64,000 nt of DNA from Desulfuromonadales bacterium (GTDB taxonomy: Bacteria > Desulfobacterota > Desulfuromonadia > Desulfuromonadales > SZUA-540), in contig JAWSUS010000005.1 of the NCBI GenBank assembly GCA_033549025.1, positions 64,001 to 128,000 on the forward strand, read 5' to 3'. A program made the position numbers and the translations under genes. The notes under the pieces are model-generated. The model was not told where the DNA came from, did not search any database, and saw only the letters and a program-made list of their open reading frames with translations. Below are positions 1-3,045 of this stretch, one piece after another (positions within the stretch are counted from its first letter, which is position 1; each line of letters begins with the position of its first letter).

Positions 1-2
1 AC

Positions 3-410
3 TCCCGCATTCATCATCCGGCCGGGGCCTATGTCGACGACTTTGATCACGTCGTCCTGGAAGAGGGTGGGGATGTTTTCGCCCGGGCCCATGTGCGCCG
101 ACGGGAGATCTACGATTCCATCAAACAGATCCGTTACTGGCTCAGCCGGCTGCCGGCCGGTGTGGCCCGAGCCGACGTGCCCCCGCTGGCGCCAGACAGT
201 CTGGCCCTGTCGCTGACGGAGGGGTGGCGCGGCGAAATCGTGCATGTGGCCCTGACCGATGCCGCCGGCCGGTTTTCGCGCTACAAGGTCGTGGATTCCT
301 CCTTCCGCAACTGGAACGGCCTGGCCATGGCCCTGCGCGAGGAGCAGATATCCGACTTTCCCTTGTGCAACAAGAGTTTCAATCTTTCCTACTGCGGCTT
401 CGATCTGTAG
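3..410 (+). CDS. 3' part of Ehr/HycE-like (NuoD-family) large subunit of an energy-converting hydrogenase-related complex; 5'-truncated by the window
   Basis: Frame open from position 3: GDVFAR...EGWRGEI...YKVVDSSFRNW...ISDFPLCNKSFNLSYCGFDL. The C-terminus lacks the DPCxxC NiFe ligand motif. Confidence 0.85.
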   Translation, partial: SRIHHPAGAYVDDFDHVVLEEGGDVFARAHVRRREIYDSIKQIRYWLSRLPAGVARADVPPLAPDSLALSLTEGWRGEIVHVALTDAAGRFSRYKVVDSSFRNWNGLAMALREEQISDFPLCNKSFNLSYCGFDL

Positions 411-430
411 GCGGGGATGGAGAACGAGCT

Positions 431-1183
431 ATGCTGAAGATTATTGCTGAACGCTTTCGTCAGGGCTATCGGACCGGCAAGTACCCCAAGGAAGAGCCGG
501 TGCTGCCGGAACGTTTTCGTGGGCTGCCCCGTCTGCAGCCGGGGCGCTGCCCCTCCGGCTGTGACGACTGTCTGCGCGGCTGCCCCTACGGCGCCGTGCA
601 GCGGCAGGAGGGCAAAGTGGCGGTCGATATGGGGCTCTGCCTCTTCTGCGCCGACTGTACGGCCTGTACGCACGGCGCCCTCTCCTTCAGTGGCGATTAT
701 CGGCTGGCGTCCCGCCGCCGCGACGGACTGGTGGTCGATGCGGACATTTACCCGCTGGCGGAAGCGCTTGACGCCCGCATGAAAAAACTGTTCGGGCGCT
801 CCCTGAAGCTGCGCCAGGTCTCCGCCGGCGGCTGCAACGCCTGCGAAGCCGACCTCAACGTGCTCGGCACTCTGGTCTTTGACCTGGGCCGTTTCGGCAT
901 CCAGTTCGTCGCCTCGCCGCGCCATGCCGACGGTATTCTGGTCACCGGGCCGGTCACTGAAAACATGAAGAGCGCCCTGCTCGACACCTACGCCGCCGTA
1001 CCCGAGCCAAAGCTGGTCATCGCCTCCGGCGCCTGCGCCATCGGCGGCGGCCCCTTCCGTGGCAGCCCCGAGTGTCACAACGGCCTCGGTGACCTGCTCC
1101 CCGTCGACCTCTATATCCCCGGCTGTCCGCCGCACCCCTACACGGCGCTGGATGGTCTGCTGCGTCTGCTCGGCCGCCTGTAA
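431..1183 (+). CDS. Ehr/HycG-like (NuoB-family) small subunit with N-terminal 4Fe-4S ferredoxin domain
   Basis: ATG at 431 after GGAG. Ferredoxin Cys clusters CPSGCDDCLRGCP and CLFCADCTAC, then GGCNACE, SPRHADGILVTG, SGACAIGGG and IPGCPPHP. Confidence 0.9.
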   Translation: MLKIIAERFRQGYRTGKYPKEEPVLPERFRGLPRLQPGRCPSGCDDCLRGCPYGAVQRQEGKVAVDMGLCLFCADCTACTHGALSFSGDYRLASRRRDGLVVDADIYPLAEALDARMKKLFGRSLKLRQVSAGGCNACEADLNVLGTLVFDLGRFGIQFVASPRHADGILVTGPVTENMKSALLDTYAAVPEPKLVIASGACAIGGGPFRGSPECHNGLGDLLPVDLYIPGCPPHPYTALDGLLRLLGRL

Positions 1184-1202
1184 AAGGCGGCCGCTGCCGT
1201 CG

Positions 1203-1454
1203 TCAGAATTCGAGCTCTTCCTGCATGCGCAGGGTGAAGTTCTTGGCCCGCCCTGAGGGCGCGATGATGCCGTAGGCCATGGCCTCCTTGAGTTCCGCCT
1301 CGCTGGCTCCTGCTTCCTTCGCGACCGCGAAGTGCTTTTTCAGTCAGTCGGGGCAGCCGACGGCCACGGCGCAGGCCACCCGGATCAGTTCGCGGTGCTT
1401 GACGTCGATGACTTCTTCGTACTCGTAATCCAGAATTTTTTTACGGACTTTCAT
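1203..1454 (-). CDS. AhpD/carboxymuconolactone-decarboxylase-like selenoprotein, 83 aa, Sec at codon 37 (TGA at 1346-1344)
   Basis: GAGGAGG RBS, then MKVRKKILDYEYEEVIDVKHRELIRVACAVAVGCPD-U-LKKHFAVAKEAGASEAELKEAMAYGIIAPSGRAKNFTLRMQEELEF. The AhpD-like pattern (RELI..AVA..CxxC..H...A..AGAS..EL.EA) continues across the TGA. Confidence 0.85.
1317..1332 (-). promoter_or_regulatory. Putative bacterial SECIS hairpin
   Basis: CTTCGC-GGTC-GCGAAG stem-loop starting 11 nt 3' of the in-frame TGA. Spacing and GGUC loop resemble the E. coli fdhF SECIS. Confidence 0.75.
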
Positions 1455-1564
1455 CGTTCCTCCTCGCAAGCTGTTGGTTGCCCCATAGCCCGCGCCGGAC
1501 ACGGGCCAGTCAGGGGAAGGGCGGTGTAGGTTTCTGGCTACTCCCTCGTTTTTCCGCTAATTTC

Positions 1565-1593
1565 TTGACAGTTTCAAGGGGGCGTTGTAATTA
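1565..1593 (+). promoter_or_regulatory. Putative sigma70 promoter for aroC
   Basis: TTGACA-17 nt-TAATTA with TG upstream of the -10. Confidence 0.5.
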
Positions 1594-1701
1594 AATCGGG
1601 TTTTCACGGACAGATGCAAGCTTTTTTGTCTGTCCAGACCGCCTTTAACCGCGATGTCCGCCGGCAATGACCTGCGGGGGAGATTTTCGCAAGGAGTGGG
1701 G

Positions 1702-2790
1702 ATGTCGAGTCAATTCGGAACGCTTTTCAGGATCTCAACCTTTGGTGAATCCCACTGCCCGGGAGTAGGGGTGGTGGTGGATGGCTGCCCGCCGAATATG
1801 GCGCTGTGCGAAGCCGATATCCAGGCGCAGCTTGACCGGCGCCGGCCGGGGCAGAGCGCGCTGACAACGCCGCGGGACGAGAAGGATCAGGTCGCCATCC
1901 TCTCCGGCGTCGAGCGGGGGCGCACCCTCGGCACCCCCATCTGCCTGCTGGTGGGCAACAAGGATTTTCGGCCAGGGGATTACACGGAGACGGACGATGT
2001 GCCCCGACCCTCCCATGCCGACTATACCTATCAGATGAAGTACGGTATCCGCGCCGCCAGCGGCGGCGGTCGGGCCAGCGCCCGCGAGAGCATCGGCCGG
2101 GTGGCCGCCGGCGCACTGGCCGAAAAATACCTGCGCGAGACCTACGGCATCGACATTGTGGCCTGGGTCAGCGCTATCGGCAGCGAAGAGGCCCCGGCGG
2201 TGGCTATGGACCGTATCAGCCGTGCCCAGGTCGACAGCTCGGACGTGCGCTGCCCTGACGCGGAGGCCGCCGAACGCATGGAGACAGCCATCCTGTCGGC
2301 GCGGGAGCAGCAGGATTCGATCGGCGGCGTCATCACCTGTGTTTGCCGGCAGGTGCCCGCCGGCCTGGGCGAGCCAATCTTTGACAAGCTCGAAGCGGCT
2401 CTGGCGGCGGCCATGCTCTCCATTCCGGCCAGCAAGGGTTTCGATATCGGCTCCGGTTTCGCCGGAGCCCGTATGCTCGGTTCCCAGCACAACGATCCTT
2501 TTGTGGCCAAGGGGGAGCGCCTCGGCACCCTCACCAACCATAGCGGCGGCGTGCAGGGCGGCATCTCCAACGGCGAACCCATCTATTTCCGCGTGGCCTT
2601 CAAACCGACGGCGACCATCGGCCAGCCCCAGCGTACCGCCGACTTTGCCGGCCGCGAGGTCGAACTCAAGGCCCGCGGCCGCCACGATCCTTGCGTGGTT
2701 CCCCGTGCTGTGCCCATTGTCGAGAGCATGGCGGCCCTGGTCCTCATGGACCTGCTGCTGCAGCAGAAGACGCGTCAGTCCCTGCGATGA
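1702..2790 (+). CDS. aroC: Chorismate synthase
   Basis: [28 protein letters not shown] and RGRHDPCV motifs; AAGGAG RBS before ATG 1702. Confidence 0.97.
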
Positions 2791-2823: not shown

Positions 2824-3045
2824 ATGTCCAATCCCGCTGAATTCGTCAAGGCTTGTGTCGACGGCAAGGTCTGGCTCTTTTGCCCCGAGTGCCAAGAATC
2901 CAAGAACTTCAACGATGTCGAACACATCGATTCGGAAGGGCATCCCTCCTACTGGGGGACGGAGCCCTGGTGGCACGACACCCGCATCTTCAAGTGTCGC
3001 GACTGCGAGACGGTACAGCGCTCGACGCTGCACCTGCAGGAGTAA
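2824..3045 (+). CDS. Small hypothetical zinc-ribbon-like protein (73 aa)
   Basis: GAGG RBS; CPEC...CRDC pair; codon usage fits host; terminator follows. Confidence 0.7.
   Translation: MSNPAEFVKACVDGKVWLFCPECQESKNFNDVEHIDSEGHPSYWGTEPWWHDTRIFKCRDCETVQRSTLHLQE

Follow-up and report, generated by a model that had tools for sequence, protein, structure and literature searches.

Does a TGA in the middle of a short reading frame mark an intact selenoprotein gene and, if it does, is the gene new and what might its product do? The question is raised by positions 1203..1454, minus strand, of a 64,000-nucleotide stretch of Desulfuromonadales DNA, which we refer to as the window. From an ATG at 1454 the window sequence gives 36 codons, then a TGA at 1346-1344 as codon 37, then 46 codons up to a stop TGA at 1205-1203. 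Judged by comparison of sequences, codon 37 very probably encodes selenocysteine (Sec). The wider reading, an intact gene whose UGA is read as Sec and whose predicted product is an AhpD-like Cys/Sec disulfide or peroxide reductase, we consider probable. The gene is an ordinary ortholog of a selenoprotein family known since 2006; the call is correct but reports nothing new.

Reading frame and family membership

A Shine-Dalgarno-like GAGGAGG (1459..1465, minus strand) stands 4 nt ahead of the ATG, and the orthologs have a purine-rich ribosome binding site and an ATG at the equivalent place. A longer start at GTG 1502 was rejected, the extension not being kept in genome G001 and the ribosome binding site standing before ATG 1454. 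The terminal TGA was also rejected as a read-through codon, since the G003 ortholog ends in TAA at this position. The first-pass annotation had described an AhpD-like frame at 1203..1454 with a strong ribosome binding site, the TGA, 46 further codons and a hairpin 11 nt on; all of these coordinates hold, and only the strand (minus) had gone unstated. No sigma-70-like site passed in a promoter scan of window positions 1100-1750. RNA data from three studies (four runs) yielded contigs that match the gene with at least 88% likeness; they also cover its flanks, and they give no readable strand or level.

The read-through protein scores 160.3 bits against the NCBIfam equivalog model NF041047 ('GSU3128 family (seleno)protein'; cut-off 110), with residues 1-82 aligned to profile positions 1-83 of 84, and its 83 residues compare with the 84 positions of the model. 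It has the CxxU motif with a single Sec site that characterizes NF041047, here C34-P-D-U37, and passes both the AhpD core-domain model TIGR00778 (35.8 bits, cut-off 27.8) and the Pfam CMD family PF02627 (48.5 bits, gathering score 23). The GSU3128 family (CxxU; COG0599/YurZ) and the window protein share length, CxxU motif, single Sec codon and lineage, and at family level nothing differs; the named relatives are from Geobacter, Geomonas and Desulfuromonadales, which makes Desulfuromonadia the likely class of the genomes compared below.

The family has been in print for some time. The survey of Zhang et al. (2006; PMC1794560) has an entry 'distant AhpD homolog' under two Geobacter species, the selenoprotein list of a 2022 review (PMC9312934) also contains it, and a 2026 review (PMC13188914) describes NF041047 as a 'distant alkylhydroperoxidase (AhpD) homolog' with motif CxxU. 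The suggestion of a hidden selenoprotein is therefore confirmed as a call but overstated in its interest, the family being published and a curated model existing. A literature search for GSU3128 by name returned nothing, with most subscription journals and supplements outside the search, so that an experimental study may be missed; nor did the searched literature yield a test of the activity of the family. Supplementary lists of selenoprotein surveys may already contain the copy of this genome.

The other half of that suggestion, that pipelines would miss or cut the gene, is borne out. A plain open reading frame scan of the window recovers only the N-terminal piece of the 83-codon gene, and gene callers often cut the gene: 94 of the 113 matches in the protein collection span just 39-56% of the protein. 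What the locus contributes is thus the correction of a gene call that was likely missed or cut, and one more ortholog for a known family; it offers nothing beyond GSU3128 of G. sulfurreducens.

For the comparisons below, 132 orthologous loci were examined, one duplicate and one 10-base fragment having been left out. The motif that we used matched 128 of them, and residue and codon conservation was calculated from 108 distinct genes.

Active site, neighbours and candidate substrates

An AlphaFold2 model of the protein, with U entered as C, has a mean pLDDT of 94.9 and consists of a beta-hairpin (residues 4-13) and three helices (18-32, 35-47 and 52-80), with C34 just before the second helix and U37 inside it. 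The three helices agree with the helical fold of the PF02627 superfamily; the fold assignment is based on this monomer model and on sequence matches to solved structures. The closest of these are the small CMD/AhpD proteins 7y4r (E 1.8e-9) and 3bey (E 6.9e-8), members of PF02627 in which CxxC-x3-H falls in register at the same alignment position. Unlike the window protein they carry Cys, with 6 chains in each entry, and the matches to them begin only at residue 12-18; the short N-terminal beta-hairpin of our model occupies residues 4-13. By analogy with CMD-family structures the protein is likely to form a ring oligomer, either a trimer or a hexamer.

The relay of M. tuberculosis AhpD consists of Glu118, Cys130, His132, Cys133 and His137 (PMC3141380), and four of these five are kept here at the same spacing. 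Glu22 (1389..1391), which by spacing corresponds to Glu118, Cys34 (1353..1355), the first position of CxxU and the Cys130 equivalent, U37, and His41 (1332..1334), the His137 equivalent, are invariant in 108/108 distinct genes, all on the minus strand in the window. The fifth, His132, is replaced by Asp or Thr in nearly all cases (D in 65, T in 38, A in 3 and V in 2 of the 108 genes), and PA0269 likewise deviates at this position (PMC3141380). The window protein thus has in common with M. tuberculosis AhpD and PA0269 the two-helix catalytic hairpin, the pattern E-x11-C-x-x-C/U-x3-H and the TIGR00778 core, but it is half as large as M. tuberculosis AhpD, has Sec in place of the second Cys and has no adjacent ahpC. 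Against the full-length ahpD model TIGR00777 it reaches 14.8 bits, far below the cut-off of 191.95.

In AhpD the attack comes from the second position of CxxC. From the shared spacing of E22, C34, U37 and H41 we propose an AhpD-like reductase cycle through C34 and U37. On established knowledge of Sec insertion, SelB loaded with Sec-tRNA would bind the GG-containing loop of the hairpin and deliver Sec to codon 37, and without selenium translation would halt at residue 36. With M. tuberculosis AhpD as a guide, U37 would be placed where the second helix of the catalytic hairpin starts, and E22 and H41 would act as proton relay. The U37 selenolate would attack an oxidised partner, such as a peroxiredoxin disulfide, or peroxide directly; C34 would then resolve the adduct into a C34-U37 selenenyl-sulfide, which could be re-reduced by dihydrolipoamide and lipoamide dehydrogenase or by a thioredoxin-type system. 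Candidate partners over cut-off in the genome are seven AhpC/TSA-family matches and two lipoamide dehydrogenases, none of them adjacent, and no conserved peroxiredoxin or reductase neighbour (ahpC included) was found among 128 loci. The earlier proposal of a Sec-dependent redox protein of 83 residues is in this way supported by the family match, the sel genes and the conservation of TGA and frame, with its function still a prediction. Three AhpC/TSA-family genes of the same genome, at G000:C2:259598-259996, C2:19279-19713 and C5:14152-14523, carry an in-frame TGA themselves (T-F-V-U, G-G-W-U-P-F-C and T-P-V-U, respectively) and are probable further selenoproteins.

The alternative that survives best keeps the selenoprotein and changes its substrate, to sulfane sulfur or polysulfide or a metalloid-thiol adduct, with a MATE exporter directly behind the gene in Geobacter-like genomes. 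A MATE transporter is indeed the commonest neighbour, found downstream on the same strand at a median gap of 28 nt in 54/128 loci and 42/108 distinct genes (for example L068:987-2504), but 74 of the 128 loci, the window included, have none beside the gene, and the association may be plain synteny among kin. The absence of the His132 equivalent would suit a changed substrate, and G. sulfurreducens has a selenoenzyme, distinct from this one, that reduces polysulfide (PMC13510729). AhpD-like CxxU domains also occur fused to methyltransferases, in ArsM/AhpD (NF041537) and MduS (NF045649), both of which the window protein matches weakly (36.8 of 510 and 32.8 of 380 bits, far below the cut-offs). 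Altogether we regard this substrate as unlikely. Slightly less likely still is its extension to the family as a whole: in the sulfur- and metal-reducing Desulfuromonadia these proteins, rather than being peroxide-defence adaptors, would be minimal Sec reductases that act on polysulfide or metalloid-thiol adducts and, wherever a MATE exporter is encoded alongside, feed it. If the polysulfide or metalloid reading were true, the near-invariant 16-nt SECIS element, kept in distant homologues, would also provide a clean model of how SelB recognises its element in bacteria other than E. coli.

Returning to the AhpD-like reductase that we favour, CxxU in an AhpD/CMD fold is common to the window protein, MduS, ArsM/AhpD and two further AhpD selenoprotein families, AhpD-like 1 and 2 (PMC2398784); MduS and ArsM/AhpD differ in being multidomain fusions. 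The genome has a second AhpD-domain selenoprotein gene, a MduS gene with 567.5 bits against the NF045649 cut-off of 380 (L163:1-993, plus strand, at G000:C42:1-993, where the contig begins inside the gene). It encodes G-C-D-P-U, and its TGA is followed at a distance of 12 nt by the hairpin CCTCGC-AGGT-GCGAGG, which resembles the variant of the GSU3128 SECIS that has an AGGT loop.

Only in its neighbourhood does the window gene differ from its relatives: its neighbours here are a divergent aroC and a convergent Ehr-like operon. The operon (window 1-1183 and G000:C5:54423-65183) encodes hydrogenase-4 membrane subunits, a large subunit that is NuoD-like and has no CxxC, and a ferredoxin-NuoB fusion; it resembles group-4 hydrogenases, fits the name 'Ehr' and is preceded by a DNA-binding/PTS-IIA gene. 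That the selenoprotein gene is convergent on the Ehr operon, as first described, is true here, but a convergent Ehr small subunit beside the gene recurs in only 5/128 loci (and the aroC link in 3), which says nothing on function, and a functional link to Ehr was rejected for this reason. A perfect 9-bp inverted repeat, CGGCCGCCT-GTAAA-AGGCGGCCG, at window 1171-1193 overlaps the Ehr small subunit's stop, just past the stop of the window gene, and is possibly a terminator shared by the two convergent genes, although the terminator scan did not flag it. Beyond aroC, at window 2824-3045 on the plus strand, is a 73-residue open reading frame that contains two CxxC motifs and that no family model scores above its cut-off.

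Codon 37 and the selenocysteine machinery

Codon 37 (1344..1346, minus strand), the predicted Sec of G-C34-P-D-U37, is TGA in 132/132 orthologous loci: in 128 by the motif, and the other four also have the TGA and the hairpin. The frame stays open for 45-57 codons after the TGA in 128/128 loci, and amino-acid conservation in the 108 distinct genes is 0.86 before the TGA and 0.86 after it. The first-pass annotation had staked its call on homologues with Cys or TGA at codon 37 and on coding conservation beyond it, and both are found, with Cys in one full-length homologue and in distant CMD relatives.

That UGA is instead read as Trp or Cys, through an alternative code or a suppressor tRNA, so that the protein would be an ordinary one, has a very small probability. 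Its apparent support comes from the protein collection, where position 37 is W in 17/18 full-length homologues and C in the remaining one (P0019). In metagenome stretches, however, the exact pattern at codon 37 gave TGG, TGC or TGT in 0 cases and TGA in at least 120, and for this reason the W forms are most likely produced by gene callers reading through the TGA. Within the family, the strict pattern thus detected no genuine Trp or Cys allele in metagenome contigs, with P0019 as the one Cys form in the protein collection. Cys at the Sec position is otherwise seen in P0116 and in the PDB relatives, so that the usual pairing of Sec and Cys homologues is present. The genome also uses TGA as a stop, both for the window gene and for aroC, its sole Trp tRNA has anticodon CCA, and its only tRNA with anticodon UCA is tRNA-Sec.

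The machinery that Sec insertion at codon 37 calls for, and which the first-pass annotation expected elsewhere in the genome, is there in all four parts over cut-off: selA (624 bits), selB (384), selD (362) and selC, the tRNA-Sec (77 bits). The selA-selB-selD cluster lies on the same contig (G000:C5:148101-152365), about 20 kb past the end of the window. Its selD gene contains one in-frame TGA, and 11 nt downstream of this TGA a hairpin follows.

Across genomes the gene tracks selA, which also speaks against Trp or Cys at codon 37. NF041047 has matches in 168/301 genomes of the class, and all 150 listed of the 169 matches have one TGA. A GSU3128-family gene is present in 166/276 selA-positive genomes compared with 2/25 selA-negative ones, counts that are not independent, as the genomes are related. 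All of the 12 matches over the NF041047 cut-off in a 401-genome sample of the phylum fall within this class.

The two selA-negative genomes that carry the gene, G142 and G216 (96% and 99% complete), are the main result against the Sec reading, and could be taken to favour an ordinary amino acid, since they keep the gene intact without detectable sel genes. Gene, TGA and hairpin are all preserved (L158 at G142:C33 and L159 at G216:C21), while selA, selB and tRNA-Sec were not found in either, with 150 of the 332 and 374 RNA candidates, respectively, scored in the search. A selD without TGA is present in G216, and none was found in G142. The two genes are likely to be relics after a recent loss of Sec use, or else the sel genes fall into assembly gaps. 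One further TGA-containing AhpC/TSA match is also kept in G142.

The hairpin behind the TGA

The hairpin, CUUCGC-GGUC-GCGAAG at 1317..1332 on the minus strand, has a 6-bp stem and a 4-nt loop starting with GG, and its stem is opened by the third base of the His41 codon (CAC in 106 of the 108 genes). It begins 11 nt after the TGA, exactly where the first-pass annotation had placed a SECIS-like hairpin, and its loop begins 17 nt after the UGA. The bSECIS description of the bacterial element (PMC13188914) allows a loop of 3-9 nt with G in its two opening positions, a stem of 4-16 bp, 16-37 nt from UGA to loop and a minimum free energy of at most -7.5 kcal/mol. The loop GGUC, the stem and the spacing lie within these ranges, and the energy does so only when the flank is included: a stretch of 37 nt that starts at the UGA reaches -9.7 kcal/mol, the 16-nt hairpin by itself -7.1.

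Stability as such does not prove the element and was set aside, not being significant on its own. Counted from the TGA, a stretch of 37 nt has a folding z-score of -1.27 and one of 57 nt a z-score of +0.32. Of the 104,550 TGA trinucleotides of the genome, 1079 (1.0%) have a comparable hairpin behind them, defined as a perfect stem of at least 6 pairs with a loop of 3-8 nt and an early G, 16-25 nt after the TGA. Because the hairpin alone is not above chance, the case rests on comparison. The exact 16-mer is present in 106/128 loci. In the 108 distinct genes the most frequent codon takes a share of 0.96-1.00 at codons 41-46, which contain the hairpin, against a median of 0.61 and a maximum of 0.90 at 41 other conserved codons (Mann-Whitney p 5e-5, overstated because kinship is ignored). 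Over the hairpin the choice among synonymous codons hardly varies, and together with the bSECIS ranges this supports the SECIS-like element.

We rely on this synonymous constraint because covariation is weak. In 100 distinct 45-nt stretches the bases pair in 99.5% of 600 cells, a share reached by 0/500 shuffles, but only two pairs show double changes, in 4 of the 600 cells, and slid controls come to a similar covariation score (0.039 against 0.033). Covariation was therefore dropped as proof.

A chance rate of about 1% and the plus-strand view of the hairpin, followed there by a T-rich run with a terminator-like score 134 nt behind the Ehr-like operon, are all that speaks for a nonsense mutation that leaves a pseudogene or a 36-residue peptide, with the hairpin a chance fold or an opposite-strand terminator; the 46 codons past the TGA nevertheless match the preceding ones in conservation and are open in 132/132 loci, the hairpin is kept in the 123/128 loci where no Ehr operon converges, and the terminator scan stands at chance (1 found, 1.1 expected), so that conservation already largely refutes this highly improbable reading.

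With Sec at codon 37, a protein of 83 residues with a single Sec and a highly conserved SECIS would make an easy test object. The hairpin also has a wider range. Seven distant homologues elsewhere in the phylum (L176-L182; 66-73 bits, under the NF041047 cut-off) have C-x-H-U or C-P-T-U, with the TGA followed 11 nt on by the CTTCGC...GCGAAG arms. In one ortholog (L160, genome G012) the usual hairpin is lost and an 8-bp stem, GCAGCCTT-GGCA-AAGGCTGC, is found 12 nt after the TGA, with the amino acids changed; here the SECIS has apparently been rebuilt with a different GG-loop stem.
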